Positions 2,389 to 49,287 of a stretch of DNA of 63,450 nt are shown here, in pieces. Each line of letters starts with the position of its first letter. Position 1 is the stretch's first letter. The notes beneath the pieces were generated by a model. That model saw nothing but the letters and a program-made list of their open reading frames with translations, was not told the origin of the DNA and did not search any database. The stretch is from NCBI GenBank assembly GCA_010093815.1, contig ML996579.1. The stretch is one strand, 5' to 3'. The DNA comes from Pseudovirgaria hyperparasitica (lineage: Eukaryota). The translations under genes were made by a program, and so were the position numbers.

Positions 2389-2616
2389 TATTAGGACTTA
2401 GCCTTAGGTAGGACTCGACCTACACGTACCTTAGCTAACAGGGTTAGGAGGTGACGTGAAGGGCGGTAAATAGTTACGTACTAGATAGATCGGCGTCCCT
2501 TTATATATATACTCTCGGATTCCTACCGAAAGGGTTCGGTAGTAATTCGTTCTATAATAGAATATACCCTATTATTCTATCTAGCTATACTACTATCTAA
2601 TAACCCTATTCTTACA
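2389..2616 (+). repeat. 5' LTR of Gypsy copy 1
   Basis: Starts TA (inferred RIPped TG) and ends CA; near-identical to 14926-15153, 16486-16713, 23895-24122 and the reverse complement of 57203-57430. Confidence 0.93.
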
Positions 2617-5600: not shown

Positions 5601-6555
5601 ATCGTTAAAGAATTACTTTATAACTATACCGATCCTTAGATATTTCGATCCTAAGAAGTATATTTGGGTTGAAATAGACGCATCTAGATTTATAATTACT
5701 AGAATCATTAGTTAACCGTATAAAGATACGAAAGATAAGGTGCAATAGCACCCGGTCGCCTTCTTTTCCCGTAAAATAGCGGATATAGAGACGCGTTATA
5801 ACACGTACGACTAGGAACTACTCGTAATTATTAAGAGTTTTAAGTAATAGTAATATTATTTAGAAGGCTCCGCATATTAGATTGAATTATTATTAGATTA
5901 CGTAAATCTATATTACTTTATATCGACTAAGGTCCTTAATCGCCGATAAGTACGTTAGGCTAAGTAGATGTTAATATTTAACTTTAAAATCTTATATAAA
6001 GCTAGAAGAGAGAATAAAGTAGATTCTCTATTACGGTATAAAGATTACGAGAAATCGTTATAGAATAACGTAGATAGTCGGTATAATTTAGACTATACTA
6101 TACTATAGATACTAAAAGACTAGTTATCTAATAGAGTGTCGGAAGCTAGGACACTTTCGGTAACTCTCCGCGGGAATTAGAGCGGGTATTAAGTAATCTA
6201 AACTAACGTCTAAGAAACAGAGTAAATCCTTAAAGACTTAATTAAATCTACCTAGAATTCCGATATATTAGTAAAGAAAGTTATAAGCATGAAGGGAATC
6301 GCTATAGAACCGCCGTGGAAAAAAACTTCTCACACCCTAACGGACTAAACTAGTCAATTCGGGGCAAAACAGCGATTTATATACATTAAACGATAGAGTA
6401 TACCGAGTATAACAACCTCCGACACACGTGTGTACGTACAGCGTATAATACGCGACGATACCGACATATAGAGACACTATATACATACGCTTAAAGACTC
6501 TTCGACAACACGAGCATAGACCACATCCAATAAACGCCGACACGCCGACCCCCTT

Positions 6556-6586
6556 TTATTAGTTAAGGGCTGCCCTTAACTAATAA
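6556..6586. repeat. 31-bp perfect palindrome (15-bp arms) immediately 5' of the LINE ORF1 ATG
   Basis: ttattagttaagggc-t-gcccttaactaataa; ATG at 6589. Confidence 0.95.
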
Positions 6587-9500: not shown

Positions 9501-11365
9501 TACCACCCCTAAAGCTTCCGGGCCGCCTATACTATTATACTCCCGAAACTAGGGAAGAACTCTAACTCCCCGAAAGGATGGAGGCTAATCGCCCTCCTCT
9601 CCTATCTCGGGAAGATACTAGAGGCTATGATCGCGAAGAAGATAAGCGCCGCAGTATAGGAATATAACCTCCTCCTAGTAAACTAGAAGGCGAAGGCTAG
9701 AAGCTCTCTAATTACCGCTATCTAATATATTCTTAAAGTCGTCTAGACCGTATGGAAGTAGGGACGTGTAGTAACGCTACTCTCCCTCGACATGGCCGGC
9801 GCATTCGATAAAGTAAACTATATAAGACTTATCTATAACTTACGGAAGAGGCGTATACCCGCGTAGATTACGTAGTTTATATAGTCCTTCCTCGCCGAAA
9901 GAGTCACCTAGATATATATCCCCGGATATTAAAGTAAGTATAAGAAGACGGCTTACGGCATCCTATAAGGAAGTACTATCTCCCTAATCCTATTCCTCTT
10001 CTTTACTATAGACCTCCTCTAGGGAATATAATATATAGAGGTAGTAGGGTACGTAGACGATATATACCTTCTAGCTATCGATAATAATACTAGCTAAATA
10101 TATAGACGACTTAAATAAGACCACGGGAGATGCGTCTAATGGGTAAAGCGCTACGGAGTAAAGTTCGCCCCCGAAAAGTACTAACTCATGTACTTTATTA
10201 ACCGCCGTAGGAAATGGGCCACTAGGGAAGGCGAGCGACGCCCTAGAATAGACGCCTTTAACGAACTACCGATATAAAGCATGCGCGTACTTAGCGTTAT
10301 AATCGATAATAAGCTTAAATAGGGACCATAGGTAGTATATACCGTTTCTAGGGCCCTCTAGGTAGAAGCCGCTATACGATGGATTATAGCCTCTATATAG
10401 GGAACCGCCCGGGATAAGGCACGCTAACTATATATATCTATAGCACGACCCGCCTTCACGTACGGACACGAGTGCTAGTACACGGCCCTTATATAGACTA
10501 GGCGAATGAAGCTTAAATCTATATAGAACCGTATACTCCGTCTTATATTAGGCGTATATAAAGCTACTAACACGGTGCTACTACGACGCGAGATAGACGT
10601 TATAAGTATATATAACTTCTACTAGATATAGAGGGTGGTATACTTTACTAAATAATAAGCATAGGAACGTATAGAAAAAGTAGAATATACCTTCGCCGCG
10701 CTACGCGCGTGAGTTAGTATACACTACTAAGTACTCTTATATATAGGCCGGACTCGACTATAGTATAAGTACCTAATAGAAATAGACTCGAACCGAGTAG
10801 TATAAGAGATTAAGAATAACCTAGATACCCTTCTAGACTAATAGAGCCTTCGAGAGCTTGGACGAAGTATACGGTTATAGATCTAAGATAAGTAGAAAGA
10901 GATACTCTAGGCCTAGTAGGCCTCCTAGTAGGATAGGTATCTAGAGTAGATCCGAGGACCATAGAAGGAGCTAAGTAAATAGATATATAAAGGGCTTATA
11001 AAGGCCTAGGTATCTATACTCCTCTAAGCCCGAACGGGCGCTATAGAACTTCTATACTACCTCTATAAGAGAGGCGTCCCTAACGTGTCTCTATGGTATA
11101 AGGCGTGCGGCCGGAGAGGTATAATAGGCCACTATCTCGTAATATACCCTAATCTTCACACGTAAAGGTAGAAGCTTATCTATACGATAAGAACCTCCGA
11201 TATCGTACGATAGCTTAATAAGTACCCTAAGGACGTCGCCCGGTAGATGATTATACACCTACTACTCCTCTAATTCTAGTGGACCTAGAAATATATGCCG
11301 GAAGAGACCCGGTATACGCCGGTAGTAACCCGATATATACCGGAAGAACCCCGGGAGAACCCCGA

Positions 11366-11396
11366 TTATTAGTTAAGGGCAGCCCTTAACTAATAA
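11366..11396. repeat. Same 31-bp palindrome, inverted, at the end of LINE ORF2
   Basis: ttattagttaagggc-a-gcccttaactaataa; also at ~26840, ~30179 and ~32144 in other copies. Confidence 0.95.
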
Positions 11397-13460
11397 CCTC
11401 CGCACCTATACGTACTACCTAAGGGTAAAATAACGGTAATATAGGCTATAGGCTAATAGGTGTACTCTATAGCTATATACTTAAGACGAAATAGAGGCTT
11501 AACGAGATGTAGTTATAGATATAAGGAAGTTTTTCCCTATAGGGTTTCTTCTTACATAGTGGCTTAGACTAGAGGAGGCATAGGCCTGTAGAGTACTACT
11601 CTACCTAGTTATATAATATTATTATTATTATTATTATAGAACCGCCGTGGTTATTAAGGTAGGAACGATAATCGGACGCGATCTACTTCTAAGGCCGACT
11701 CTACGTGCCGGAGGGCGGCTTACGAATTAATATTTTAAGGGAATAGCACGATTACGTATTAGTAGGACACTTTAGCATTATAAGGACGGTCGATTTAATC
11801 CGAAGGATGTATAACTAGCTAGGTCTTTATAAGTATATAAAGGACTACGTAAAAACATGTAACGTTTACTAGTATACGAAAGTATATAGACACTTACTAT
11901 ATAGCGAATTAAGGCTATTGCCTATACTAAATAAGGTATGGAAAGAATTATTAATGGATTTTATCATAGATCTACCCCTAAGTAAGTTTCTTAGGCATGT
12001 TTATAATAGTTTACTCATAGTTCTAGATAGATTTACGAAGATATTATACTATATCTCTATAAGAAAGATAATCTAAGCACCGGATCTTATAGATATACTA
12101 CTTCGTGACGTAGTTCGGCTCTATAGTATACCGAACGGCATAGTTTCGGATAGAGATCTATAGATAATATCTAAGTTTTAGAAGGATTTCTACTATACGC
12201 TAGGAATTAAGCGGAAACTTAGTACTACGTTCCACCTATAAATAGATAGGTAGATAGAGTGGTAGAATTAGATATTTAAGGCGTATTTACGCGTATATTA
12301 TAACTATAAGTAAGATAACTAGGTAAGGTTAGTCTATATCGCGGAATTCGCGTATAATAATAGCCGACATGCGTTAACCCACGTAAGTCCGTTCGAAGTA
12401 AACTTCGGTCGAAACCATAAAGCGTAGTTTATAGGAACTTAGTATAAATTAGAGTAGCCTAACGTTAAGGCAATAGAGATTATAATAGAACTATTCTAAA
12501 CGTAAAGAAGCGTTATAAAGTTATTATAAGATACTATAGATTATAGTAAATCGCACTATAATAAGGGTAGNNNNNNNNNNNNNNNNNNNNNNNNNNNNNN
12601 NNNNNNNNNNNNNNNNNNNNNNNNNNNNNNNNNNNNNNNNNNNNNNNNNNNNNNNNNNNNNNNNNNNNNNNNNNNNNNNNNNNNNNNNNNNNNNNNNNNN
12701 NNNNNNNNNNNNNNNNNNNNNNNNNNNNNNNNNNNNNNNNNNNNNNNNNNNNNNNNNNNNNNNNNNNNNNNNNNNNNNNNNNNNNNNNNNNNNNNNNNNN
12801 NNNNNNNNNNNNNNNNNNNNNNNNNNNNNNNNNNNNNNNNNNNNNNNNNNNNNNNNNNNNNNNNNNNNNNNNNNNNNNNNNNNNNNNNNNNNNNNNNNNN
12901 NNNNNNNNNNNNNNNNNNNNNNNNNNNNNNNNNNNNNNNNNNNNNNNNNNNNNNNNNNNNNNNNNNNNNNNNNNNNNNNNNNNNNNNNNNNNNNNNNNNN
13001 NNNNNNNNNNNNNNNNNNNNNNNNNNNNNNNNNNNNNNNNNNNNNNNNNNNNNNNNNNNNNNNNNNNNNNNNNNNNNNNNNNNNNNNNNNNNNNNNNNNN
13101 NNNNNNNNNNNNNNNNNNNNNNNNNNNNNNNNNNNNNNNNNNNNNNNNNNNNNNNNNNNNNNNNNNNNNNNNNNNNNNNNNNNNNNNNNNNNNNNNNNNN
13201 NNNNNNNNNNNNNNNNNNNNNNNNNNNNNNNNNNNNNNNNNNNNNNNNNNNNNNNNNNNNNNNNNNNNNNNNNNNNNNNNNNNNNNNNNNNNNNNTAAAA
13301 TTAAGAAAGCTAAAAGAAAATATAAAGATCTATATAGATCTATATAAACTCGTACTAATCTATCTAGAAGAAGTAAGATCGCTTTAAAATTAAACCTAAA
13401 AAACTAAAAACACTAGATAAAAGAGATATATTAGCACCGATTAGTATAGATCTAAACCGA

Positions 13461-14442
13461 TTAAGTCGGAGTAGGAGTAGAAGTACTAATTACCGCGATG
13501 GTTATATCTAATTCCTTCTACTAGTTCTTATTTAGTATAGTATAGAGCTTTATAACATAAGTCTCTAGCCTTTCGTTCCGACGCTATAAATTCTATATAG
13601 CGCGCCTTATAGCTATAAACTCCTCTATAGAAACCTATAGAGCGGCGGGACCCGGGACGGAGAGGGACGGACCGGCGCGCGCACGCTAAGAATTATATAA
13701 ATTAGCGAAAAGATTTAACGATCGGTATAGAACTATATACCTTTAGTATAGAAACTTCTAGATTAGAGCCATCTTCCCTAAATTTACGGCTCTTTAGCAC
13801 GCGCGAGGAAGGAACCTTAGCCTTTTTACTAGAACCTTTTCTAGGAATTCTAATATCGCCGGTATATAGAAAGAAGTCCGAAGTAGTAGAGATTTTAGCA
13901 CTATTATAGAGATTAATATATATTAGTAAGAATCTATAACGATTTAAGAAAAACGATGTTACCTAGTAATCGTGGTAATAATAGCTATAGTAGATTCCGA
14001 TAAATCCTTATAGATCTTATTAGAATTATACTCCTAGGCGTAACCCTTGCCTTAGGTATATAGCTCGTAGAAAGCCTTCTCTAAGGCGTTACGATTAGTA
14101 GTACCACGCTCCTTATCGGTAGGGGTTACTAGAGGCCTAGTAGTAATCTATACTAATATAAGTAAATCTACGTAAAGTTCTTTAAACTTACTTAAATACC
14201 TATAAGTAATAACGCTTCTTAGTTATATAAGTACCGTATATTATAGATTTAGTACCGCCGTAAGTAACGTACGATAGAAAGTAATAACCATAATAATATA
14301 TAGCTAGATTATTAGAGCCCGGCCTAGGTCGGCGTAGATTAATGGCTTTCGACATGTCGGTAACGTATATAAGATAGGGATTATTCGAAGGCCCCTATTT
14401 CCGCGCTAATTACTTTAGAGCGTTAAGATTTCGGGAAACCAT
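13461..14442 (-). pseudogene. Antisense spliced accessory gene of Gypsy copy 1 (RIPped)
   Basis: Homologous to 57915-58896; this copy retains the ATG (14442-14440), the intron-1 GT donor and a GCTAAT branch site in intron 3. Confidence 0.7.
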
Positions 14443-14925
14443 ATTACGATTATTATTAATTTATATAGATTATTACGAATTATATTATTACTAGCTAAGG
14501 ATGGTATGAAAATTAGTAAATTACGTAAATCGCACTAAATTATAGTAAATCTATATAAATCTATATCTATAAGGATTAGGTAATATATCTAATAATCTAA
14601 AAAACTCTATAAAGAGTTAAGAGGTTTTTTAAAGAAAGGAATATTTCTAAGAAAAGATTTTAATATAGGTAGCACCCGGGCTTACCTAATTACATCACGT
14701 GATACGCTAGGCCTAATTAGGTAATCTCACCTATATAAGAAGTTAAGATAGATAAAATCTAGTTTATTAGGAAACGCTTATATAAATCTTAGATCGGCGA
14801 ATATTAGTAAGTATCTAAGACGAAGCGTAGAGAACGACTAAGGTCTTATAAGACTTAGGATAGGGATATAGAGATAGGTAATAATCTAGGTCGCTAAGGG
14901 TAGCTTCCTAGAGGGAAGGGATAAT

Positions 14926-15153
14926 TATTAGGACTTAGCCTTAGATAGGACTCGATCTACACGTACCTTAGCTAATAGGGTTAGAAGGTAACGTGAAGGG
15001 CGGTAAACAGTCACGTGCTAGATAGATCGGCGTCCCTTTATATATATACTCTCGGATTCCTACTAAAAGGGTTCGGTAGTAATTCGTTCTATAATAGAAT
15101 ACACCCCATTGTTCTATCTGGCTACACTACTATCTAATAACCCTATTCTTACA
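14926..15153 (+). repeat. 3' LTR of Gypsy copy 1
   Basis: Direct repeat of 2389-2616, preceded by the PPT and followed by TSD tatat. Confidence 0.93.
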
Positions 15154-16485
15154 TATATTATTAGTACTAATAATATTAAGTAAATAGAATAATCTAATAA
15201 CTAGAAGTACCCTAGAATTAAGATTATAAAGGTATAGTAGAAGAATATATAAGGGATTAAGGTAAAATTAAAAAAGTACTCTACTATAATAGTAGAGCTC
15301 TAAGATTCTACCCTTATCTATTAGATTATATAGAAAGGCTTTTTAGCTAAGAGAGAGTTACTTATAGTAGAACTATAAAATAGAGTATAGATAATAATCT
15401 AATACTTTAACTATTAGAGATATAGATATATAGAGTAGAGATACTCTTAGAAGGCTATCTATAGATAGTACTAATAGAACTATAGTACCTAGAAATACCT
15501 ATATAAAGCCTAAGGGGATTATATATATAATAAAGATACTACTAAGTACTCTAACTACGATAGGAATTATCTATTATAGTTAGTAATATATATAAAATAT
15601 AAATAAATTACTAAGTATATTAATACTATAAAGATAAGAGAAGTAAGATAGATATAATAGACTATAAGGCCTCTACTATCTACTCTAACCTTATCTATAA
15701 CTATACTAACTAACTTATAAGAAGGTAGAACTAATATATAATAGTATACTATATAGAGAAAGATAGGGCGACTCTAGGGTATCCTTAAGGTAGCTACTAT
15801 ATAGGGATAGTCGCGCCTTAATACTACTAGTATATAGATTTAAGCGTTCTCTAGTATCTAATAAGGAGCTAAGATATACTTATTATTATATAGGTAAATA
15901 TATAATATAAATAAGAAAACTAGGCTATGCTTCTAGAAGAGATAGATACCGCTATAATAGCTATCTAGAAGCTATATAAATACTACTAAACTAATAAACT
16001 AATAATATACCTAGAATACTATATTATCTACCCCCTAGGCCTAGATAGAAGAGTTCTATTCTATATATATAAATCTATCCCGCTCTTAGAATAGTTCTAT
16101 ATAGAATAAGATAACCTCTAGATAATACTATACCTCTAGATAGATATAGGGCCTCTCTATATCTATAATATCTATAACTAGAGAGAATTACTTATACTAG
16201 ATACTATACTAGAGAGTATTACGGAACTAGAATAATATATCCTTCTAGGCGACTTTAACCTCTACTATAGATAGTAGAGAGGCCTAATAGTTATTAGAGA
16301 AGAGCTTAGAGTAAGAGAACTATATATAAGGTACTATAACCTTCTATATCTCCTTATACTAGTTAGATAAATTATATAGAGAAAATATAAGAATAATAAG
16401 GAGAGATCTATACTCGACCTTACTCTTACTATAGAATATATAAGCTATAGAGTATAATATTACTACCCTAGTAGAATATAGATAG

Positions 16486-19400
16486 TATTAGAACTTAGCC
16501 TTAGATAGGACCCGACCTATACGTACCTTAGTTAACAGAGTTAGGAGGTAACGTGAAGGGCAGTAAACAGTCACATGCTAGATAGATCGGCGTCCCTTTA
16601 TATATATACTCTCGGATTCCTACCGAAAGGGTTCGGTAGTAATTCGTTCTATAATAGAATACACCCTATTATTCTATCTAACTATACTACTATCTAATAA
16701 CCCTATTCTTACATTAGAATTACTCCCTATATAGTACTATAGTTAAGATAGTCTAACTAGAACCGAGAAGGTCGACACGATCTACTATAGAGATAAGTAA
16801 CACTATATTAAATAATAGAGATCCTCTATAATTAGTATTAATCCCGGCCGTTTCTAACTAAGAAGTAGAAATGTTAGACTAAATCACGGAGCTTTTAGAC
16901 GAAGAAATGGTAGATACGCCGAGTAACTTCTAATAATATAAAGCCGAACAACGAGTCGTGGCGGAGCCACGTAAGGTATTATAATAAACTATCGCTGAAC
17001 TTTAGAAATACGTCGCGAATTAGGCTTAAGAGATTTAAACCCTTAAAGAATAGATAGAACGCGCGAAACTCCTTATAAAGAGACGAGAACTTAAGGAGTC
17101 TCTTAAAGAACTACGCCGAACGATAGTAGGTGGACGACTTCCTATACTAATTTAGGCGGAATTAGTTCACCTACCATTAGAGTTACGATAATCCACCGTA
17201 CACCCGACCGCTTCGTTACTAATTTACCCTACTCCTTCCCTAGGTATACCGAAACCTAAAGACCTAACTATATTTATAGGGAAGAACTAAAAGGAGTAGA
17301 AAGACTAGAAGAGAGACTACGAAAAGTACTTCCTCGATAACCCTCTACTCTTTTCTACTAAAGTATAACGCATTTCGTTTAGAGAACGATACCTAGACTT
17401 ATAATCCCGTAATTAATAGGATAGATAGAAGGAAGTGTAGCTACTATCTACGATAACCTAGGAACATTTAGCTATATTTATACTAAACACCCTCGGAACG
17501 GATAGAGAATGTAAAAGAAAGGCACTATCTAAGTTAAGAAGCGTAGCATAACGACCGAACTAGACACCTACTTAACTACTATAATACCTCTAAAACCTAT
17601 AGAATAATATCCCTACGCTATAGAAAAATATTCGTATATTCTAGTTTCGCGAAGTACTACTTCCATTAATCCGCGAAAGACTAGGAATAGTATTATTAAG
17701 TTTTAACTATCTATACGAATTAGAGGAGAAAGCTAATAAATACTACCATATCCTTAAGGAACGCGGCTCTCTAGGTAAAACCGACGAACCCTATACGGGT
17801 TAGAAACGAGGTTAATCGAATATATTTAATCAAGAGTAACCTCACCGCGATTAGCGCTAGAAGAGCGTAAATCGGGGTAGAAACGCGTTAAGAGAATACC
17901 GAAATAATCGAGGCGGTACTTCTTAACACGGAAAAGAATAAGGTATAGGCTTAAATATAACGCCTATCGTAAAATAGTAGGATTATAGCGTACTTCGTTA
18001 CTATAAGTATAGAGAAATAGAATATATTTCGCCTAACTATAAGAATCTAAAAAAAGAATAGGCTAGTATATAAGACCTAACCGCGTCCTTAGCTAAATTA
18101 TATATACTTAGGAGGAGCCGTAGCGCCTTCCGGTAAGTAAAGACCTAATATTACTAAAAGTATCGTTACCTATAGTAAATAGTAATAAAACTATATAGGC
18201 CCTCGTGGATACTAGTATAGAAGATAACTATATTTCGTCGATTCTCGTAAAGGAGTATAGATTATTATACGATCTTGGTAAAGTTAGCCGAACTATCGTA
18301 GTTAATAGACATGAAGTTAGAACTTTAGGTAAAGCTATAATGAATTACGAAGTTCATAACTCGAAGATAATAAAATAGTAGATGTCTAATAAATTCATCG
18401 TGGCTAATATTAGCTAATAGAATATGATTCTAGGGATGCCTTAGCTTAGACGCCTAAACCCTATCCTTAATTTTTAGAAGGAGATATTAACGTTCCGACG
18501 ATACCGTGGTAAATTATACTAGTAAGTTATAACTATTAGTAAGGAGGTATAGAACCTTACCGTACGGACCCGATTATCGCTAATCTATCTTACGTCCTTA
18601 TCGATTATCGATAAAGATAAGGACGATAGTAATAATCGGGGCGAAGACACGCTACCCGACGTATATTCGTAGTATACGGATGTGTTTTCGGTAGGAGATG
18701 CGTTACTTCTCCCTAATCACGGGCCGTATAAGCTAAAGATCGAGCTTAAAGAGGGAGTAGACGTCCCTTATAGCCTACTTTACCTACTTTCAAGACTAGA
18801 ACTTAAAGTTCTTTATAAATATATCGAAGAATACCTTAGAAGAGACTAGATACGTCGTAGTACGTTATTAGCTAGCGTATCTATTCTCTTCGTAAAGAAG
18901 AAAGACGGAAGTTTACGTCTATATATTAACTATCGGGTACTAAATACGGTGACTAAGAAGAATCGTCACCCATTACCGCTAGTTAGTAAATCTTTAGACT
19001 AATTAATAAAGGTAAAGTACTTTACGAAGCTAGATTTACGAGATATATATTACCAGCTTCGAATTCGTCGCGGAGATAAGTAGAAAACCGCATTTCGGAC
19101 TAGATATAGTCATTTTAAGTATACTATTATACCATTCGGGCTAATAAATACGCTAGGAGCGTTCTAAGGATACATTAACACTATACTCGTAGGATTACTT
19201 AACGTGATTTACGTAGTTTATCTTAATAATATACTAATTTACTCCGATAGTATATAGAATCATAAAGAACATGTGAAATCGGTACTAAATTATCTAAGGT
19301 AGTATAAACTCTACGTAAAATTATCTAAATACAAGTTTCACTAATAAGAAGTTAGGTTTCTCGGCTTTATTATAACACATAGCGGCCTAAAAATAGAGCC

Positions 19401-22400
19401 GGAGCGTGTAAAGACCATTATAGAATGGCCAGAACCTACTACTATACGTTAAATTAGAATATTTATAGGTTTCGTGAACTATTATTATAAATTCATTATA
19501 GGCTTCTTATAAATTATAGCGCCGCTTAATAAACTTATAGAGAATAGCGGTAAAATCCCTATAGGTAGGCGAGTATAGCGTAAAGCTAAGTCGGTCGAGA
19601 TATAGTTAACGCCGGAAGCGCGAGATACGTTCCGATCGTTAAAGAATTACTTTATAACTACGCTAATTCTTAGGTATTTTAATCCTAAGAAGTATATTTA
19701 GGTCGAAACTAACGCGTTAGGATTTATAATTACTAGAATTATTAGTTAACCGTATAAAGATACGAAAGATAAGGTGTAATAGTACCCGGTCGCTTTCTTT
19801 TCCCGTAAAATGGCGGATATAGAGACACGTTATAACACATACGACTAGAAACTACTTATAATTATCGAGAGTTTTAAGTAATAGCGACATTATTTAGAAG
19901 GCTCTATATATTAGATTAAATTATTATCGGATCACGTAAATCTACGTTACTTTATATTAACTAAGGTCCTTAATCGCTGATAAGTACGTTAGGCTAAGTA
20001 GATGTTAATATTTAACTTTAAAATCTTATATAAAGCTAGAAGAGAGAATAAAGCTAATCCTCTATCGCGGCGTAAAGATTATAAGAAATCATCATAGAAT
20101 AACGTAGATAGTCAGTACAAGTTAGACTATGCTATACTTTAGATACTATAAGACTAGTTATCTAATAGAATGCTAGAAGCTAGGACACTTTCGGCGATTC
20201 TCCGCGGGAATTAGAGCGGGTATTAAGTAATCTAAATAAACGTCTAAGAAACTAAGAAAACCCTTAAAGACTTAATTAAATCTACCTAGAATTCCGATAT
20301 ATTAGTAAAGAAAGTTATAAGTATAAAAGGAAGCGCTATAGATCCGCCATAGTTATTAAGGTAGAAACAACAATTAGACGCGATCTACTTCTAAGGCCGA
20401 CTCTACGTGCCGGAAGGCGGCTTATAAATTAATATTTTAAGGGAATAGCACGATTACGCGTTAGTAGGGTACTTTAGCGTTATAAGGACGGTCGATTTAA
20501 TCCGAAGGACGTACGACTAGCTAGGTCTTTATAAGTATATAAAGGACTATATAAAAACGTATAACGTTTACTAGCATACGAAAGTATATAGACACTTACC
20601 ATATAGCGAATTAAGGCCATTACCTATACAAAATAAGGCTTGGAAAGAATTATCGATGGATTTTATTATAGATCTACCCCTAAGTAAGTATCTTAGGCAT
20701 GTTTATAATAGTTTACTCGTAGTTCTAGATAGATTTACGAAGATATTATACTATATCCCTATAAGGAAGATAATCCAAGCACCGGATCTTATAGATATAC
20801 TACTTCGTAATATAGTTCGGCTCTATAGTATACCGAACGGTATAGTTTTAGATAGAGGTCCGTAGATAACGTCTAAGTTTTAGAAGGATTTCTACTATAC
20901 GCTAGGAATTAAGCGGAAACTTAGTACTACGTTCTATCTATAAATAGATAGATAGATAGAGTAGTAGAATTAGATAGTTAAGGTGTATTTACGCGTATAT
21001 TATAACTATAAGTAAGATAACTAGGTAAGGTTAGTCTATATCGCGGAATTCGCGTATAATAATAGTCGATATACGTTAACCCACGTAAGTCTATTCGAAG
21101 TAAACTTCGGTTAAAACCATAAAGCGTAGTTTATAGAAACTTAGTATAAATTAGAGTAGCCTAACGTTAAGGCGACGGAGATTATAATAGAACTATTCTA
21201 AACGTAAAGAAGCGTTATAAAGTTATTATAAGATACTATAGATTATAGTAAATCGCACTATAATAAGGGTAGNNNNNNNNNNNNNNNNNNNNNNNNNNNN
21301 NNNNNNNNNNNNNNNNNNNNNNNNNNNNNNNNNNNNNNNNNNNNNNNNNNNNNNNNNNNNNNNNNNNNNNNNNNNNNNNNNNNNNNNNNNNNNNNNNNNN
21401 NNNNNNNNNNNNNNNNNNNNNNNNNNNNNNNNNNNNNNNNNNNNNNNNNNNNNNNNNNNNNNNNNNNNNNNNNNNNNNNNNNNNNNNNNNNNNNNNNNNN
21501 NNNNNNNNNNNNNNNNNNNNNNNNNNNNNNNNNNNNNNNNNNNNNNNNNNNNNNNNNNNNNNNNNNNNNNNNNNNNNNNNNNNNNNNNNNNNNNNNNNNN
21601 NNNNNNNNNNNNNNNNNNNNNNNNNNNNNNNNNNNNNNNNNNNNNNNNNNNNNNNNNNNNNNNNNNNNNNNNNNNNNNNNNNNNNNNNNNNNNNNNNNNN
21701 NNNNNNNNNNNNNNNNNNNNNNNNNNNNNNNNNNNNNNNNNNNNNNNNNNNNNNNNNNNNNNNNNNNNNNNNNNNNNNNNNNNNNNNNNNNNNNNNNNNN
21801 NNNNNNNNNNNNNNNNNNNNNNNNNNNNNNNNNNNNNNNNNNNNNNNNNNNNNNNNNNNNNNNNNNNNNNNNNNNNNNNNNNNNNNNNNNNNNNNNNNNN
21901 NNNNNNNNNNNNNNNNNNNNNNNNNNNNNNNNNNNNNNNNNNNNNNNNNNNNNNNNNNNNNNNNNNNNNNNNNNNNNNNNNNNNNNNNNNNNNNNNNNNN
22001 NNNNNNNNNNNNNNNNNNNNNNNNNNNNNNNNNNNNNNNNNNNNNNNNNNNNNNNNNNNNNNNNNNNNNNNNNNNNNNNNNNNNNNNNNNNNNNNNNNNN
22101 NNNNNNNNNNNNNNNNNNNNNNNNNNNNNNNNNNNNNNNNNNNNNNNNNNNNNNNNNNNNNNNNNNNNNNNNNNNNNNNNNNNNNNNNNNNNNNNNNNNN
22201 NNNNNNNNNNNNNNNNNNNNNNNNNNNNNNNNNNNNNNNNNNNNNNNNNNNNNNNNNNNNNNTAAAATTAAGAAAGCTAAAAGAAAATATAAAGATCTAT
22301 ATAGATCTATATAAACTCGTACTAATCTATCTAGAAGAAGTAAGATCGCTTTAAAATAGAAACCGAAAAAACTAAAAACGCTAGATAAAAGAGACATATT

Positions 22401-24122
22401 AGTACTAATTAGTATAGATCTAAACCGATTAAGTTGGAGTAGGAGTAGAAGTACTAATTACCGCGATAGTTATATCTAATTCCTTCCGCTAGTTCTTATT
22501 TAGTATAGTATAGAGCTTTATAATATAAGTCTCTAGCCTTTCGTTCTAACGCTATAAATTCTATATAGCGCGCCTTATAGCTATAAACTCCTCTATAGAA
22601 ACCTACGGAGCGGCGGGACCCGGGATAGAGAGGGACGGACTAGCGCGGGCACGCTAAGAATTATATAAATTAGCGAAAAGATTTAACGATCGGTATAGAA
22701 CCATATACCTTTAGTATAGAAACTTCTAGATTAGAGCTATCTTCCCTAAATTTATAGCTCTTTAGCACGCGCGAGGAAGGAACCTTAGTCTTTTTACTAG
22801 AACCTTTTCTAGGAGTTTTAATATTACTAGTATATAGAAAGAAGTCCGAAGTGGTAGATATTCTAGTACTATTATAGAGATTAATATATATTAGTAAGAA
22901 TCTATAACGATTTAAGAAAAACGATATTACCTAGTAATCGCGGTAATAATAGCTATAGTAGATTCCGATAAATCCTTACGGATCTTATTAGAATCGTACT
23001 CCTAGGCGTAACCCTTGCCTTAGGTATATAGCTTATAGAAAGCCTTCTCTAAGGCGTTACGATCGGTAGTACCACGCTCCTTATTAGTAGGGGTTACTAG
23101 AGGCCTAGTAGTAATCTATACTAATATAAGTAAATCTACGTAAAGTTCTTCGAACTTACTTAAATATCTATAAGTAATAACGCTTCTTAGTTATATAAGT
23201 ACCGTATATTATAGATTTAGTACCGCCGTAAGTAATATATAACGGAAAGCGATAACTATAATAATATATAGCTAGATTATTAGAGCCCGGCCTAGGTCAG
23301 GGTAGATTAATAGCTTTCGACATATTAGTAACGTATACGAGATAGAGATTATTTAAAGGCGCCTGTTTCCGTACCGATTACTTTAGAGCGTCGAGATTTC
23401 GGGAAACTATATTATAATTATTATTAATTTATGCGGATTATTACGAATTATATTATTACTAGCTAAGGACGGCACGAAAATTAGTAAATTGCGTAAATCG
23501 CACTAAATTATAGTAAATCTACATAAATCTATATCTATAAGGATCGGGTAATATACCTAATAATCTAAAAAACTCTATAAAGAGTTAAGAAGTTTTTTAA
23601 AGAAAGGAATATTTCTAAGAAAAGATTTTAATATAGGTAGTACCCGGGCTTATCTAATTACATTACGTGATACGCTAGGCCTAATTAGGTAATCTTACCT
23701 ATATAAGAAGTTAAGATGGATAAAATCTAGTTTATTAGGAAAACGCTTGTGTAAATCTTAGATTAGTAAATATTAGTAAGTATCTAAGACGAAGCGTAGA
23801 GAACGACTAAGGTCTTACGAGACTTAGGATAGAGATATAGGGATAGGTAACGATCTAGGTTACTAAGGGTAGCTTCCTAGAGGGAAGGGATAATTATTAG
23901 AACTTAGCCTTAGGTAGGACCCGATCTACACGTACCTTAGTTAATAGAGTTAGGAGGTAATATAAAGGGCGGTAAATAGTTACGTGCTAGATAGATCGGC
24001 GTCCCTTTATATATATACTCTCGGATTCCTACCGAAAGGGTTCGGTAGTAATTCGTTCTATGATAGAATACACCCTATTGTTCTATCTAACTACACTACT
24101 ATCCAATAACCCTATTCTTATA
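16486..24122 (+). mobile_element. Ty3/Gypsy LTR retrotransposon copy 2, RIP-inactivated
   Basis: LTRs 16486-16713 and 23895-24122; TSD gatag (16481-16485 and 24123-24127); collinear gag-PR-RT-RH-INT relics; ORF 20656-20865 is an integrase core fragment (MDFIIDLP..VVLDRFTK). Confidence 0.93.
22429..23410 (-). pseudogene. Antisense spliced accessory gene of Gypsy copy 2 (RIPped)
   Basis: Homologous to 57915-58896; retains a CAG codon (cgg aaa cag gcg) where the other two copies have TAG. Confidence 0.7.
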
Positions 24123-26587
24123 GATAGACTCTAACTATAAATATATAGAGACTATAATAGATATATCTATATCTAATAAATAATAGAGAAGATAGCTATA
24201 GAAAGATACTAACTAGAAGAAGTATAGGGAGAACCTAGAATTAGTAATTCTAGACCCCTCTATAGTTAATATATCTAATAGCCCGACTATAGATAGAGCC
24301 GTATAAGTTCTTCTTTAAGCCTTCTAAAACTTAAGAGATAAATATATACTATACTAAATATATAAGTCTCTAGATATAAGGGGTATACTCTAAATATATA
24401 AAAGTAGAAGAGAAGCCCGGAGACTATATATATATATACTATATCTAGATAACTAAGATATAGAAGGAATAGAAAGAGGTAATCTAATCTTATAATAGGA
24501 CTCTCTATAATAAATAATATAAATACTAGTATATAATTACTAAGAAATATATATAATAGACTATAGAGCTATAGTATATAGTAAAGTAGGCTAAGAGTAT
24601 AGACGTGCTAATACTACTACTACTAATATATCCCCTAATATACTAGGGGAGGATATATACTATAAGCCCCGAAAAGATAGAGATTCTCTAAGAAGTTATA
24701 TTTCCCCCCCTAGAGCTAGTAGATCTATTAGATATTAATAATAATATATATCTAGACGCGGTTAATATCTCTATAGAGATTATAGAAAAGGATATACTTA
24801 ATACTATTAAAGTACTCCTAAATAATAAAGTATCTAGACTAGATAGAATACTAAATAGATATCTTAAATATACTATATAGGTAACCTTACTACTTATTAG
24901 TCTTATCTTCTAGATATATACTAAGAATAGATACTATCTCTAAAGCTTCTAGACTATCTATACTATTATACTTCTAAAGCTAGAGAAGAACCCTAACTCT
25001 CTAAAAGAATAGAGACTAATTACTCTTCTCTTCTATCTTAGTAAGATATTTAAAACTATAATTGCGAAGAAGATAAGTACTATAGTATAAGAATATAATC
25101 TTCTTCTAGTAAACTAGAAGGCGAAGACTAGGAGCTCTCTAATTACTACTATCTAATATATTCTTAAAGTTATCTAGACTATATAGAAGTAGAGATATAT
25201 AATAATATTACTCTCCCTTAATATAGCTAGCGTATTTAATAAGGTAAACTATATAAGACTTATCTATAATCTATAGAAGAGATATATATCTAAATAGATT
25301 ATAAAGTTTATATAATTCTTTCTTACTAAAAGAATTATCTAGATATATATCTCTAGATATTAAAGTAAATATAAGAAGATAATATATAGTATTCTATAAG
25401 GAAGTACTATCTCCCTAATCCTCTTTCTTTTCTTTACTATAGACCTTCTATAGAGAATATAATATATAGAGATAGTAGAATATACTAATAATATATACCT
25501 TCTAGCTATTAATAATAATACTAGTTTAATATATAAATACCTTAAATAAGACTATAAGAGATATATCTAGTAGGTAAAGCGCTATAGAGTAAAGTTCGCC
25601 CCTAAGAAATACTAACTTATATACTTTATTAACTACTATAGAAGATAGACTACTAAGGAAGAAGAGTAATATTCTAGAATAGATACTTTTACTAAACTAC
25701 TAATATAGAGTATACGTGTACTTAGTATTATAATTAATAATAAACTTAAATAGAGTCTATAGATTATATATACTATATCTAGAGCCCTTAAGATAGAAGC
25801 TACTATATACTAGATTACGGCCTCTATATAGAGAACTACCTAGAATAAGGCGCGCTAGCTATATATATCTATAGTATAATCTACCTTTATATATAGATAT
25901 AAGTACTAGTATATAGCCCTTATATAGACTAGGCGAATAAAGCTTAAGTCTATATAGAACTATATACTCTACCTTATATCTAGTATATATAAAGCTACTA
26001 ATATAGTACTACTATAACACGAGATAAATATAATAAGTATATAGAACTTCTACTAGATATAGAGGGTAATATACTTTACTAAATAATAAGTATAGAAATA
26101 TATAGGATATACTAAATATACCTTCGCTATACTATATATATAAGTTAGTATCTACTATTAAGCGCTACTATATATAGTCTAGACTTAACTATAGTATAAG
26201 AGTCTAATAGAGATAGACTTAAACTAAATTATATAAGAGATTAGGGATAATCTAGACGCCTCTCTAGACTAGTAGAACCCTTAGAAGCTTATACAGGCTA
26301 TATAGTTATAGACCTAGAATAAATAGAAGGAAGTTCTCTAGATCTATTAGATATCCTAATAGAATAGATATCTAGAATAGATTTAGAAACTATAGAAGAA
26401 ACTAAGTAGATAGATATATAAAGGGCTTATAAAAGCCTAAGTATCTATCCTTCTCTAAGCCCGAATAGAAGCTATAGAACTTCTATACTATCTATATTAG
26501 AGAGATATCCTAGACACGTCTCTATAGTATAAAGTATATAGCTAGAGAGATATAATATAGTACTATCTTATAATATATCTAGACCTC

Positions 26588-26595
<8 letters not shown>

Positions 26596-26619
<24 letters not shown>

Positions 26620-29600
26620 TTATATAACTAGGTAGAGTAGTACTCTATAGGCCTATGCCTCCTCTAGTCTAAGCCACTATATAAGAAGAAACCCTATAGA
26701 GAAAAACTTCCTTATATCTATAACTACATCTCATTAAACCTCTATTTCGTCTTAAGTATATAGCTATAGAGTACGCCTATTAGCCTATAGCCTATATTAC
26801 TATTATTTTACCCTTAGGTAGCACGTATAGGTGCGGAGGTTATTAGTTAAGGGCTGCCCTTAACTAATAATCGGGGTTCTTCTAGGGTTCTTCCGGTATA
26901 TATCGGGTTACTACCGGCGTATACCAGGTCTCTTCCAGCATATATTTCCGGGTCCACTAGTACTAGAGGAGTAGTAGATATATAAGTATCTATCAAGAGA
27001 CATCCTTAGGGTACTTATTAAGCTATCATACAATATCTAAAGTCTTCATAACGTAGATAAGCTATTACCATTATATATAGAGGTTAGAGTATATAGCTAG
27101 ATAGTGGCGTATTATACCTCTCCGGCCGCACGCCTTATACTATAGGGAGGTATTAGGAACGCCTCTCTTATAGATATAGTATAGGAGTCCTATAGCGCCC
27201 GTTCGGGCTTAGATGAGTATAGATGCTTAGGCTTTCGTTAGCCCTTTATATATCTATTTACTCGGTTCCTTCTATGGCCCTCGAATCTACTCTAGATACC
27301 TATCCTACTAGGAGGTCTAGTAGGTACGGAGTGCCTCTTTCTACTTATCTTAAGTCCACGACCGTATATTTTTCACGAGTTCTTAAAGGCTCTACTAGTC
27401 TAGGAGAGCGTCCGGGTTATCTCGGACTTCTTATACTACTTAGCTAGAGTCGGCTTCTATTAAGTATCTATACCGTATTTAATTCTAGCCTATATATAGG
27501 AGTGCGCGGTAATATATACTAATTCATACACGTAGCGCGGCGAAAGTATATTCTACGTTTTCTATGCGTTCCTATACTTATTATTTAGTAAAGTATACTA
27601 CCCTCTATGTCTAGTAGAAGTTATATATACTTATGACGTCTGTCTCGCGTTATAGTAGCACTATATTAGTAGCTTTATATGCGCCTAATATAAGACGGAG
27701 TATACGGTTCTATATAGATTCGAGCTTTATTTACCTAGTCTATATAAGGGCCATATACTAGCACTCGTGTCCGTACGTAAAGGCGGGTCATGCTATAGAT
27801 ATATATAGCTAGCGTACCTTATCCCGGGCGGTTCCCTACGTAGAGGCTATAATCTATTATATAGCGGCTTCTATCTAGAAGGCCCTAGAGACGGCGTATA
27901 CCACTTATAGTCCCTATTTAAGCTTACTATCTAGTATAACTCTAAGCGCGCGCATGCTTTATACTAGTAGTTCGTTAAATACGTCGATTCGGGGGCGTCG
28001 TTCGCCTTCCCTAGTTACCTATTTCCCTTAATAATTAATAAAGTGTATAAGCTAGTATTTCTCTAGGGCGAACTTTACTCTATAGCGTTTTACCCACTAG
28101 AGGCACCTCTCGTGGTTCTATTCTAGTCGTCTATACGTTCGGTTAGTATTATTATTAATAGCTAGGAGGTATATGTTATCGGCGTATCCGACTACCTCTA
28201 TATACTTTATTCCTTAAAGAAGGTCTACCGTAAAGAAGAGGAATAGAATCGGAGAGATGGTGCTCCCTTATAGGATGCCGTATACCGTCTCTTTATATTT
28301 ACTCTAGTACCTAGGGATATATATCTAAGTTATTCTTCCTATAAGGAATGACTATATAAAGCGTATAATCCATTCTAGTATTCGTCTTATCTAGAGGTTA
28401 TAAATAAGTCTTATATGGTTTACCTTATTAAACGCTCCGGCCATATCGAGGGAGAGGAGCGATACTACCCGTCCCTATTTCCATGCGGCCTAGACGACTT
28501 TAATAATGTGTTAGATAGCTATTATTAGGGAGCTATCTACCTTTACCTTCTAGTTTAGAGGGAGGAGATTATATTTCTATGCCGCGGTACTTATCTTCTT
28601 TACTATCATGGCCTCTAGTATCTTACCTAGGTAGAAGAGAAGGGCGATTGGTCTCCATCCCTTTAGGGAGTTAGGGCTCTTTCCTAGTTTCGGGAGCATG
28701 ATAGTATAGGCGACTCGGAAGCTCTAGGGGTGGTACCCCTACGTAACGTATACTTAGCCTCTAGTTCGAAGTCGGATGACTCCTATAGGTTCGACGTGCT
28801 CTATACCATTAGGCCCTACTCCTGTTTTCGCCTTATCTTATCCCCTTTAGGCTTATACCTCCGGCTCTACTAGAAGAGGGGCACGACGCCTCCTCTAGCT
28901 AGGAAACTACGAGGTTTACTCCTTAAACCTATATTACTAGCGTACGTACCTAGCGACACGTTCTATCTCTTTATAAATCGATACGCGTATCCGTTCTCTC
29001 GGGCCATATAGTAGTCTCCCCGGCTAGGACGTAATCCCGCCTACTTCTAGATATACTAAAGGTTAGAGCCCATTAAAGGGGTAAGGTCCTTAGAGCTAGT
29101 AGTTACTACTATATACCACGCCCTACCTTTAAGCATAGCTACTATCCGGTTTCGTATTACCTATAGAGATCTCTCTACGATAGGCCGACCGTGTCTTATA
29201 GGCGAGTATCCTTTAAATTCTATACGTGTATACTTACGTGACGCGCCTAGGCGACTTAAGTATTCTCTATCTACTAACCCGATCTATTTCTACTACTTTT
29301 TAATAGGTCCCTATAGCCGCCTCTTGCCTATATCCGTGTACTATTATATATATATACTAGCGCCCTACCTCCTACGGTAGACTATAACATCTCTTATACG
29401 CGGGAGCTACTCTATCTATCCTAGACCTAAGCGGTATCCTATATCGAGCGAAAGGTCTTAATAGAGTCGCGCTACTAGTGGTCGCGCTAGGCGTCTTAAT
29501 AAACGTAGTTTAATACTATAGGAGAGTTAGCCTTAATAAGTTCATCCGTAGTAGTTTATAGTTGCCCTCGACGTGATTTCTCGCTAATTCTTACGCACCT

Positions 29601-29960
29601 AGAGCTATTTAAGCCTCGAGGTGTTCTATCGCGCTACTAGGACTTCCGCTTTCTCTACCTATATAGTAAGGTAGATTCAGGCCTACTTTTAACATAGTAG
29701 TAGCACGTTAGATGGTTTTCTTATCCCGGTATCCTCGTGGACTTCTCTTAACGCGTTAATTAAGAACAGGATAGAAGTATATACTATCCTAGCTGGTTTA
29801 TTATGGTGTGGTCCCTATAGAGTAACGCGTCGCGAAAACTCTATAACTACCTACCTAGCGACGACGAGGTCACCATTAACGCCGCTCTAAACCTCTTACT
29901 ACCTCCGAAGAGGCATTGCCTAGCTACGACGACGTAGACGCGGTTCGTGAGACTTCGTAG
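26596..29960 (-). mobile_element. Chimeric MINE-like retroelement copy A: head X (29960-28757, 1,204 bp) fused to a 5'-truncated LINE (28756-26596)
   Basis: TSD ctagacctctatatata at 26579-26595 and 29961-29977; tail reads (TAA)n on the plus strand at ~26597-26620; LINE part starts at the position equivalent to ~9480 (RT region). Confidence 0.88.
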
Positions 29961-32765
29961 CTAGACCTCTATATATAGAGATAATTACTTATCTATATAA
30001 TAAGAACCTCTAATATTATATAGTAGCTTAATAAGTACTCTAAGAAGATTACCTAGTAGATACTTATATATCTCTCTCTCCCTTAATACTAATAGATCTA
30101 GATATATATACTAGAAGTAACTAGGTATATACTAGATAGACCCTAGCGTACGTTAGAAGAACCCTAGAAGAACTCTAATTATTAGTTAAGGGTAACCCTT
30201 AACTAATAACCCCTATACTCTATATATACTATCTAAGGGTAAAATAATAGTACTATAGATTATAGGCCTATAAATATTTCTAATAGCTATATACTTAAGA
30301 TAATATAAAGGTTTAATAAGATATAGTTATAGAGAGAAGGGAGTTTTTCCTTTTATAAAGGTTTCTTCTTATATAATAGCTTAGACTAGAGAAGGTATAT
30401 ATCTATAGAGTAAACTACTCTACCTAGTTATATAATATTATTATTATTATTATAGTATTAAACTATATTTATTAAGATATCTAGTATAATTACTAATAGT
30501 ATAACTCTATTAAGATCTTTTACTTAATATAGAATACTACTTAGATCTAGAATAGATAGAGTAGCTTCTATATATAAGAGATATTATAGTCTACTATAGA
30601 AGGTAGAGCGCTAGTATATATAAATAATAATATATAGATATAGATAAGAGATAGTTATAGGGATCTATTAAAAAATAGTAGAAATAAATTAGATTAGTAG
30701 ATAGAGAATACTTAAGTTACCTAGGCGTATTATATAAGTATATATATATAGAATTTAAAGAATACTTATCTATAAGATATAGTTAGTCTATTATAGAGAG
30801 ATTCTTATAGATAATATAAAACTAGATAGTAGCTATACTTAAAGGCGGGATATAGTATATAATAATAACTACTAGCTCTAAGGACCTTATCCCTTTAATA
30901 GATTCTAATCTTTAATATATCTAGAAGTAGATAGAATTATATTCTAGCTAGAGAGACTACTATATAGTCTAAGAGAATAAATATATATATTAATTTATAA
31001 AGAGATAGAATATATTACTAGATATATATACTAGTAATATAGATTTAAAGAGTAAATCTTATAGTTCTCTAGCTAGAGAAGGTATTATATCTCTCTTCTA
31101 GTAGAGCTAGAGATATAAGTCTAAAGAGAATAAGATAAGATAAAAATAGAAGTAGAGTCTAATAGTATAGGGCACGTTAAACCTATAGAAGTTATCTAAC
31201 TTCGAACTAGAGACTCTATAGTATAACCCGCCTTTATATACGGATATAAGTACTAGTATATAGCTCTTATATAGACTAGGCGAATAAAGCTCGAATCTAT
31301 ATAGAACTATATACTCTATCTTATATTAGATATATATAAAGCTACTAATATAGTACTACTATAACACGAGATAGATATTATAAGTATATATAACTTCTAC
31401 TAGATATAGAGAGTAGTATACTTTACTAAATAATAAGTATAGAAATATATAGAAAATATAGAATATACTTTTACTATACTATATATATAAATTAGTATAT
31501 ATTACTATATACTTCTATATATAGACTAGAATTAAATAGGGTATAAGTACTTAATAGAAGCTAACTCTAGCTAAGTAGTATAAGAAGTCTAAGATAATCT
31601 AGATACTCTTCTAGACTAGTAGAGCCCTTAAAAACTTATAAAAAATATATAGTTATAGACCTAAGATAAATAGAAAAAGATACTCTATATCTACTAGATC
31701 TTCTAGTAGAATAGATATCTAGAATAGATTTAAGAGCTATAGAAGAAACTAAGTAATTAGATATATAAAGAACTAATAAAAGCCTAAGTATCTATACTTA
31801 TCTAAGTCTAAATAGATATTATAGAACTTCTATATTATCTCTATAAGTAAGATATTCCTAATATCTCTCTATAGTATAAGGTATATAGCTAGAGAGATAT
31901 AATATACTACTATCTAGCTATATACTCTAACCTTTATATATAATAGTAATAGCTTATCTATATTATAAAGACTTTAGATATTATATAATAGCTTAATAAG
32001 TATTCTAAGAATATCTTCTAATAGATACTTATATATCTATTACTTCTCTAGTACTAGTAGATCTAGAAATATATACTAAAAGAGACCTAGTATATACTAG
32101 TAGTAATCTAATATATACTAGAAGAACCCTAGAAGAACTCTAATTATTAGTTAAGGATAGCTCTTAACTAATAACCTCTATATCTATATATACTATCTAA
32201 GGGTAAAATAATAGTAATATAGACTATAGACTAATAGATATACTCTATAGCTATATACTTAAGATAAAATAAAGATTTAATAAAATATAGTTATAGATAT
32301 AAAGAAGTTTTTCTTTATAGAGTTTCTTCTTATATAGTAGCTTAGACTAGAGAAGATATAGATCTATAGAGTACTACTCTATCTAGTTATATAATAATAT
32401 TATTATTATTATATATATATAAGAGGTTATTATACTTAGTATACTCTATTAATTAATATATATAGATTACTAAAGTAAATTCTACTAGTATTTTAATATT
32501 TATATATATATATAGACCTTTCTATAGCCGTAGATAGTTATCTCTTTAAGCTTTTTAATAAAATATACTTTATATACTATATATTATATTTCTTAGTCTT
32601 ATTTATTTAAGATACCTTCTATACTACTACCTCTACTTAAGGTAATATTATTATATATATCTTTTAAAACCTTATGGTTTATATATATATATATATAACT
32701 TATGAAGTTTTAGTATATTCCGCTATCTATCCATACCCTTTTTGGCGTGGGACCATTCTATTTAT

Positions 32766-48670: not shown

Positions 48671-48752
48671 AGTAATAATAATAATAATATTATTATTATT
48701 ATATAACTAGATAGAGTAGTACTCTATAGATATATACCTTCTCTAGTCTAAG
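48671..48752 (-). mobile_element. Tiny LINE 3'-end fragment with tail
   Basis: Reverse complement of the LINE 3' terminus (cttagactagagaagg...ctctatctagttatataata + tail), cf. 11563-11637. Confidence 0.8.
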
Positions 48753-48990
48753 TATAAGAATTAAGTAAATAGATAGTAGTATAGCTAGATAGAGTAATAG
48801 AGTATATTCTATTATAGAATAAATTACTACTAAATCCTTTTAGTAGTAATTAAAGAGTATATATATAGATATAAGAGATACTAATCTATCTAGTATATAA
48901 CTATTTACTACTAATTATACTACTATCTCTAACTATCTTAGCTAAGATATATATAAATCTAGTCTAGTAGTCTTTAGCTAATTTCTAATA
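48753..48990 (-). repeat. Degenerate isolated LTR related to the Gypsy family
   Basis: Aligns by eye to 57203-57430 (tataagaat...tattctattatagaataaattactactaaatccttttagtag...ttctaata). Confidence 0.7.
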
Positions 48991-49287
48991 ATTAATATAA
49001 AACTTATAGTTCTAGTATAGATATAATATTTACTCTTAGAGTAGTAGACTAAGTAGTTATTACTTTATATATAGATTCTTATATTTTAAATAATATTAAA
49101 AATATATTAATATTTATCTTACTTAGATTATACTAGATACCTTACTAATACTTTATATATTCTTTAAAAATTAGTCTTTTATATATATAAGTTACTAAAG
49201 TAATTAAAATTTTTAGAAGTAATATTTTTAAAGAGTAATATATACTTTTTAGGCATGTAGTAATTCTAAATATAGTCTATCTCTACA

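Follow-up and report, generated by a model that had tools for sequence, protein, structure and literature searches.

How does one and the same sequence of 1,204 bp come to stand, in two separate insertions, in front of 3' ends of a long interspersed nuclear element (LINE) that begin at different points? The question is raised by two copies, A and B, in the 63,450-nucleotide stretch of contig ML996579.1 (assembly GCA_010093815.1) that was analysed here and is referred to below as the window. Both consist of a non-LINE head, named X, joined to a 5'-truncated LINE part, the whole being enclosed by one target-site duplication (TSD). We demonstrate the anatomy of these elements, the common ends of X, several points of entry into the LINE, and insertion at different times. 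A and B are likely to be bipartite chimeras made by the LINE's own machinery, its reverse transcriptase (RT) having jumped from the LINE RNA to an RNA of X; from the structures described here we infer both the template jump and a discrete X RNA of 1,204 nt. The two copies are built as follows.

26596-29960, minus strand: copy A, whole, with a 17-bp TSD, within the 3' region of LINE C
26579-26595: TSD of copy A, 3' side, CTAGACCTCTATATATA, a string found exactly twice in the window
26596-28756, minus strand: LINE 3' part of copy A, 2,161 bp including the (TTA)n tail, equivalent to 9480-11637 of LINE D
28757-29960, minus strand: head X of copy A, 1,204 bp, GC 44%, partly altered by repeat-induced point mutation (RIP)
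29961-29977: TSD of copy A, 5' side, CTAGACCTCTATATATA
895-32410, plus strand: copy B, whole, with a 16-bp TSD, its head split by LINE C, inside the older LINE fragment F
879-894: TSD of copy B, 5' side, ATATATATATAAGAGG, a string found only twice in the window
895-1349, plus strand: bases 1-455 of head X of copy B, GC 23%, RIP-saturated
30466-31214, plus strand: bases 456-1204 of head X of copy B, ending ...CTTCGAACTAGAGAC
31215-32410, plus strand: LINE 3' part of copy B, ~1,196 bp with the (TTA)n tail, equivalent to 10437-11638 of LINE D
32411-32426: TSD of copy B, 3' side, ATATATATATAAGAGG

An earlier note on this DNA, made from the letters, had described copy A as a minus-strand element at 26596-29960 with a 17-bp TSD, and BLASTN against the window together with direct reading confirmed this. 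Its description of copy B (895-32410) was likewise borne out, the TSD being 16 bp long and its string occurring only twice, as was the claim that both heads start right after the TSD, end at the same base and measure 1,204 bp (455 + 749 bp in B). The first letters directly after the TSD are CTACGAAGTC in A and CTATAAAGTC in B, and the last letters of the head are CTTCGAACTAGAGGC in A and ...GAGAC in B (that is, ...GAGRC, or ...CTTCGAACTAGAG(G/A)C). The unequal LINE starts that the note had reported were also found, at the equivalents of positions 9480 (A) and 10437 (B) of LINE D. The LINE part of A, 83.9% identical to 9480-11637 of LINE D over 2,162 positions in a BLASTN self-comparison of the window, thus begins just upstream of the RT domain, and that of B begins downstream of the RT core. 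In both copies the LINE directly abuts X in the same orientation, with no A-run in between, and no homology extends across the joint, at most 1 nt being possibly common to the two sides at the junction of A.

The partner LINE is represented in the window by two full-length copies and an older fragment.

6319-11634, plus strand: LINE D, full length, the reference copy, with a (TTA)n tail, inserted in a long terminal repeat (LTR) retrotransposon
6303-6318 and 11635-11650: TSD of LINE D, 16 bp, TATAGAACCGCCGTGG
~8364-8714, plus strand: apurinic-type (APE) endonuclease of LINE D (Exo_endo_phos_2, 5e-09, frame 2)
~9561-10193, plus strand: RT of LINE D (RVT_1, 3.4e-17, frame 2, the same frame as the endonuclease)
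1350-30452, plus strand: LINE C, full length, within the head of B, broken by two LTR-retrotransposon copies and by copy A
1337-1349 and 30453-30465: TSD of LINE C, 13 bp, TAGTATTAAACTA
288-887, minus strand: LINE fragment F, older, from the 5' region of the LINE, the target of copy B, aligning to 2106-1510 at 79.7%

With RT and endonuclease in one frame, TSDs and a simple-repeat tail, this LINE is an APE-type non-LTR retrotransposon; the relatives of its protein are ~1,100 amino acids long with the same domains (best E 1e-116, 31% identity), the named ones coming from Fusarium. All LINE-derived copies seen in the window end in (TTA)n. The TSDs of the chimeras (17 bp in A, 16 bp in B) stand beside those of the plain LINE copies (13 bp in C, 16 bp in D), and each of the four strings is present exactly twice in the window. 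The TSDs at 26579, 879, 1337 and 6303 open TA-rich in the orientation of the element (TATATA, ATATAT, TAGTAT and TATAGA, respectively), directly after the (TTA)n tail, which points to base pairing between the tail RNA and the nicked target when synthesis is primed. The LINE also carries a palindromic motif of ~31-40 nt with arms TTAGTTAAGGGC and GCCCTTAACTAA, twice per element, ~230 nt from the 5' end and ~250 nt from the 3' end (6547-6588, 1586-1617, 11366-11396 and 26840-26870). The motif is retained in chimera A, and it may form a hairpin that proteins of the element recognise.

Are the two heads really one sequence? X of A and X of B are identical at 932 positions; the remainder are 269 transitions, 3 transversions and 1 gap, and 264 of the transitions set a G or C in A against an A or T in B. 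As the differences are almost all transitions, the two heads must have been practically identical before RIP. The purine/pyrimidine pattern of the last 64 nt of X matches only the A and B sites (0 in 100 shuffles), and the window holds no other X-like stretch. The same reduction to purines and pyrimidines, which is blind to RIP, was used to ask whether X belongs to either element family of the window. The local alignment score of X was 39 against LINE D (shuffles 37.3 +/- 3.6) and 39 against the LTR element (shuffles 38.8 +/- 4.1), compared with 1189 for X of A against X of B as positive control. X as a diverged part of the LINE or of the LTR element was thus rejected, the scores being no better than those of shuffles. 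Furthermore, the full-length LINE copies C (from 1350) and D (from 6319) both start AAAAAACTTCT..., so X is not the LINE 5' end; the 5' end of LINE D, AAAAAAACTTCTCAC..., differs from X.

No known RNA or protein was recognised in X. With a limit of E = 10, Rfam searches of 28600-30100 on both strands gave 0 matches, none to tRNA, 5S or 7SL. Pfam on the six frames with stops masked gave a single chance-level row below the cut-off (E 0.086), and phmmer with the frame that has the fewest stops (on the window's plus strand, one of six) gave 0 matches among 1.84 billion representatives. The longest open frame of X, 106 codons, is antisense to X and its length is reached by 14 of 500 dinucleotide shuffles; stop counts failed to single out the true frame in a control on open reading frame 2 (ORF2) of the LINE as well. 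Neither end of X folded better than shuffles (z -0.20 for the first 120 nt, -0.69 for the last 120 and +0.42 for the last 60), and two RIP-tolerant IUPAC patterns of X found 0 and 0 loci in metagenome scans. As a side observation on the two ends of X (29951-29960 and 28767-28779, minus strand), bases 4-10 (CGAAGTC) are complementary to a GACTTCG lying 11 nt short of the 3' end, so that the termini of X could pair, the complementarity having been seen by eye; in folding, the 3' segment with GACTTCG also makes a local hairpin.

When did the two copies arise? LINE C splits B and A lies within C, so B was inserted before C, and C before A. The RIP index (CpA+TpG)/(ApC+GpT) agrees with this order: it is 0.02 in the head and 0.01 in the tail of B, 0.01-0.07 in C, and 0.25 in the head and 0.29 in the tail of A. 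Within each element head and tail are alike in RIP and therefore share one history, which fits insertion as one unit. B, being older by nesting, is not a deleted derivative of A. From the order of insertion and the near-identity of the heads before RIP it follows that at least two captures of X took place, far apart in time, and that the source sequence did not change between them.

Further joints were sought in the contigs of four sequencing runs under one species label, aligned to 26500-30060 at 80% likeness. Runs X1 and X2 represent one sample, maybe the window's own source (11,394 and 4,160 contigs aligned), and runs X3 and X4 a second sample (25 and 20 contigs). In X1 the contigs add up to a depth of 170-530 thousand on the LINE part; at 28757-28760 this falls abruptly, to 12-31 thousand on X, and contigs that span single joints have a depth of 240-490. 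Contig depth is not copy number, and copies less than 80% alike, such as B, are missed; roughly estimated, the copies of X number in the tens, with a depth ~4-7% that of the LINE 3' end. Three of the seven joints listed for X1 and X2 leave X at its last base (+/-1). The first (27171 to 28757) has one extra G between the two sides and a LINE part of ~576 nt; the second (27184 to 28757) has a LINE part of ~589 nt; and in the third (27587 to 28758) the last base of X is missing and the LINE part is ~992 nt long. Three spurious joints all falling within 2 nt of the end of X would be surprising.

Together with A and B, these two or three sites bring the points of entry into the LINE to four or five, the last base of X (+/-1) remaining constant. 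The earlier note had named two circumstances that would speak against its template-switch reading, namely one junction shared by all copies, and X as simply the normal 5' part of another autonomous element. Neither was found: there are four or five entry points, both full-length LINE copies start differently from X, and X aligns with the LINE and the LTR element no better than shuffles do. Its reading is supported instead by a fixed full-length head followed by a variable LINE 3' part inside one TSD.

Could X with a LINE tail be an ordinary non-autonomous family, fused once, with a promoter in X, moved by means of its LINE 3' end and diversified in its junctions by later deletions or recombination? 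Such a family would be repeated, as X is (17-20 distinct contigs at single X positions in X1), and in excerpts of the 2007 paper on the MINE chimeras of Magnaporthe some of these are transcribed and six pairs have a common junction site (PMC2104539). Whichever of the four or five entry points is used, however, the left break is at the last base of X (+/-1). A common end is not what independent deletions would produce, and a deletion origin of the junctions is thus disfavoured. Moreover, B has the shorter LINE part and is nonetheless older than A by nesting and RIP index, so it is not a deletion product of A, and even a single-fusion family still requires at least one fusion resembling a template switch. 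We consider this explanation unlikely.

A fixed left end and variable right ends would likewise be produced by alternative 3' splice sites. LINE transcripts might have been spliced, in the manner of spliced integrated retrotransposed elements (SpIREs), with X as the 5' exon, a donor at base 1204 and alternative acceptors inside the LINE. The bases of LINE D just upstream of the entry points are TTT, ATA, TAC and TCT (or CTT), none of them AG, and reversing the RIP transitions yields no AG there either, barring special pleading. One joint with an extra G and one without the last base of X fit template jumping and not splicing. As no AG precedes the entry points, the splice-acceptor reading was rejected, and a splicing origin appears extremely improbable.

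It may also be asked whether X was placed beside the LINE by an assembly artefact or by a rearrangement at the DNA level, for instance ectopic recombination between repeats. The three runs of N in the window, the dense nest of repeats and the possible identity of X1/X2 with the window's own source, which would make these runs non-independent, leave some room for it. However, perfect TSDs of 16-17 bp flank two separate elements, and head and tail are equally RIPped within each of them. One contig joins 26568 to 29964 and thus represents an uninterrupted LINE at the insertion site of A (a paralogous LINE copy, with an empty site), and contigs of the second sample break at the same two ends of X. 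Such an origin is very unlikely.

Set against the window, the contigs of the second sample are un-RIPped: A>G changes number 224-231 and T>C 119-120, compared with 20 C>T and 13-18 G>A. Their likeness to A ends at 29961 and at 28757, and X is thus bounded by the same two bases in another sample; past these ends they continue for 373 (or 135) and 650 letters unlike A. The X 5' end and its flank are covered by contigs of 649 and 411 nt. What follows X on its 3' side may be either LINE from upstream of 9480, which is outside the aligned stretch, or a LINE-free flank. These contigs bear on a further possibility, that a longer transcript, or another mobile element, has X as its 5' part, with an RNA that often ended early, or was cleaved, at base 1204 and was captured in this truncated form instead of a dedicated 1.2-kb RNA. 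In X3 and X4, a 962-nt contig contains X 893-1204 followed by the 650 letters unlike the LINE part of A, maybe the rest of a longer unit, and neither an X gene nor free X RNA was seen. A break exactly at 28757, however, equally fits a chimera with a LINE start upstream of D 9480, and X has no Pfam, Rfam or protein match and is unlike both element families of the window. We regard this origin as improbable; it would be a variant of the same capture mechanism.

Two side observations concern these runs. A LINE variant that skips 276 nt (27135-27412), with CACA in their place, occurs in one contig in each of the four runs; in X3 and X4 it is the only long LINE contig (4,052 and 4,383 nt), is un-RIPped, and may be the active master copy. 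In X3 only, the summed depth on 29594-29712 of X rises to ~1,400, a peak absent from X4, and at 29625 two contigs reach a summed depth of ~3,200, compared with 50-250 elsewhere on X.

We can now return to template jumping by the LINE RT as the likely origin of A and B. At a TA-rich target that has been nicked, target-primed reverse transcription would start from the (UUA)n tail of the LINE RNA. The RT would copy more or less of the LINE (~2.2 kb for A, 1.2 kb for B and ~0.6-1.0 kb for the further copies), then leave the LINE RNA and switch to another RNA, X, which would not be polyadenylated and would be copied from its 3' end through to its 5' end; the joined cDNA would finally be integrated as one unit with one TSD of 16-17 bp. 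The absence of an A-run between X and LINE suggests that the X RNA is not polyadenylated. A template jump fits the constant last base of X, the junction homology of at most 1 nt, the extra G at one joint and the base lost at another.

Several points weigh against this interpretation. The RNA nature of X is deduced from DNA, as none of the runs X1-X4 is recorded as RNA, and an X locus free of LINE was not observed. RIP makes the coding test of X weak, and the non-coding status of X is thus not established. For each of the extra joints the evidence is a single contig, aligned at 80% likeness, whose shorter side has only 27-43 letters; runs X1 and X2 come from one sample that is possibly the window's own source; and the joints at 27171 and 27184 could stem from two alignments of the same locus. 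At the junction of A, the un-RIPped LINE also has a C at the position of the X end (loose end 28755), which leaves an uncertainty of +/-1 nt in the X end of A. Finally, the GCC*A/U motif reported for MINE sites was not recognised here, though RIP may hide it.

Is there a precedent for such an element? According to excerpts of the 2007 paper (PMC2104539), MINE has a full-length non-coding head of 1,113 nt (WEIRD), found only fused to the LINE MGL. The MGL parts measure 230-5,461 nt, with 28 junction sites in 33 elements and repeats of 10-20 bp, and the authors state that they found neither a solo WEIRD gene nor a WEIRD-like sequence in other genomes (PMC2104539). A fixed full-length head with a variable LINE 3' part in one TSD is described as the look of template-switch chimeras, the U6-L1 chimeras of mammals being named alongside MINE (PMC2104539). 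A and B have what marks this type: the same first and last base of a non-LINE head in independent insertions, a variable 5'-truncated LINE with its 3' end and tail, one TSD of LINE size, and direct fusion.

The X-LINE family matches MINE in every structural criterion examined. Both have a non-LINE head of ~1.1-1.2 kb, full length, with constant ends and no detected coding capacity; a direct, same-orientation fusion to 5'-truncated fungal LINE parts of many lengths; and one TSD of 10-20 bp around the whole, with no junction homology. Both also exist in tens of copies, the head having been seen so far only joined to LINE. They differ in that all copies here are degraded by RIP, the head measures 1,204 instead of 1,113 nt and the LINE 5.3 instead of ~6 kb, and the relatives of the host are Pleosporales (by one host gene), whereas Magnaporthe is a Sordariomycete. 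Two 20-nt WEIRD primers, the part of WEIRD taken from PMC3978060, had 0 matches within 3 mismatches, which excludes near-identity at those two sites only. In purine/pyrimidine form the same two primers matched once (2.5 expected) and three times (2.3 expected), which is chance level for these two sites.

Like U6-L1, the X-LINE chimeras combine a full-length and, in the case of X, presumably non-polyadenylated RNA at the 5' side with a variable, 5'-truncated LINE at the 3' side inside one TSD, an arrangement explained by RT template switching during target-primed reverse transcription. However, X is 1.2 kb long, has no Rfam match and is not a small nuclear RNA such as U6, whose length is 107 nt, and at roughly 4-7% of the LINE 3'-end depth it is apparently much more frequent. 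In a short interspersed nuclear element (SINE), a short body with an RNA polymerase III promoter derived from a small RNA precedes a LINE-like tail that is fixed. In common with SINEs that carry a LINE-derived tail, such as Mg-SINE as presented in excerpts of PMC2104539, the X-LINE elements are non-autonomous, moved by the partner LINE, and end in LINE 3' sequence. X differs in its length of 1.2 kb, in its variable LINE part of ~0.6-2.2 kb and in the lack of a tRNA, 5S or 7SL match. A SINE identity was thus rejected on the 1,204-nt head, the 0 Rfam matches up to E = 10 and the variable LINE part.

What is the setting of these elements? AT-rich repeat nests occupy 1-32.5 kb and the right end of the window, and ordinary fungal genes lie at 32.7-55 kb (Nup98-96, Opi1, an APH-family kinase and Cdc23). 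All repeat copies in the window bear marks of RIP (TpA/ApT 1.5-2.1 and (CpA+TpG)/(ApC+GpT) 0.00-0.32), compared with 0.85 and 1.19, respectively, in the gene region. The host is a RIP-active ascomycete. The top named relatives of the Nup96 fragment are Pleosporales proteins, by which the host is probably a Dothideomycete, an assignment that is tentative because their identity reaches only ~41%; the host does not look like Magnaporthe. The other repeat family consists of three LTR-retrotransposon copies of ~7.6 kb, with LTRs of ~236 bp that are 88-94% alike.

2379-6318 and 11635-15157: LTR retrotransposon, copy housing LINE D
16482-24126: LTR retrotransposon
57199-63450, minus strand: LTR retrotransposon

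Two of the three sit in LINE C and one houses LINE D; two are broken by runs of N. In the gene-rich part, a 78-nt LINE 3' end with its tail (48675-48752, minus strand) adjoins an LTR-like stretch (48755-48994).

Why should the RT land repeatedly on X? X might be a dedicated hitch-hiker instead of a bystander host RNA, that is, a non-autonomous retroelement with its own promoter and 3'-end-forming signal that offers a preferred landing site for the jump of the LINE RT; WEIRD would then be a second example, either independent or anciently related. We hold this extension to be possible, if rather doubtful. If true, every un-RIPped chimera would release a fresh 1,204-nt RNA, and X would spread without mimicking the LINE 3' end, unlike SINEs.

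In the literature searched, no fungal family of template-switch chimeras other than MINE/WEIRD of Magnaporthe was found. The evidence presented here supports the reading of the X-LINE elements as LINE template-switch chimeras that form a MINE-like family in another fungus with active RIP, a family which repeat annotators would otherwise split into an "unknown repeat" and a "LINE fragment". It is a second system in a distant ascomycete, with a head of similar size, tens of copies and captures spread over time, and provides a comparison partner for the nature of the head RNAs and for the reason why the RT lands there. Two such systems would suggest that frequent capture of a particular non-coding RNA of ~1.1-1.2 kb is a recurring feature of fungal LINEs and not the oddity of one species.

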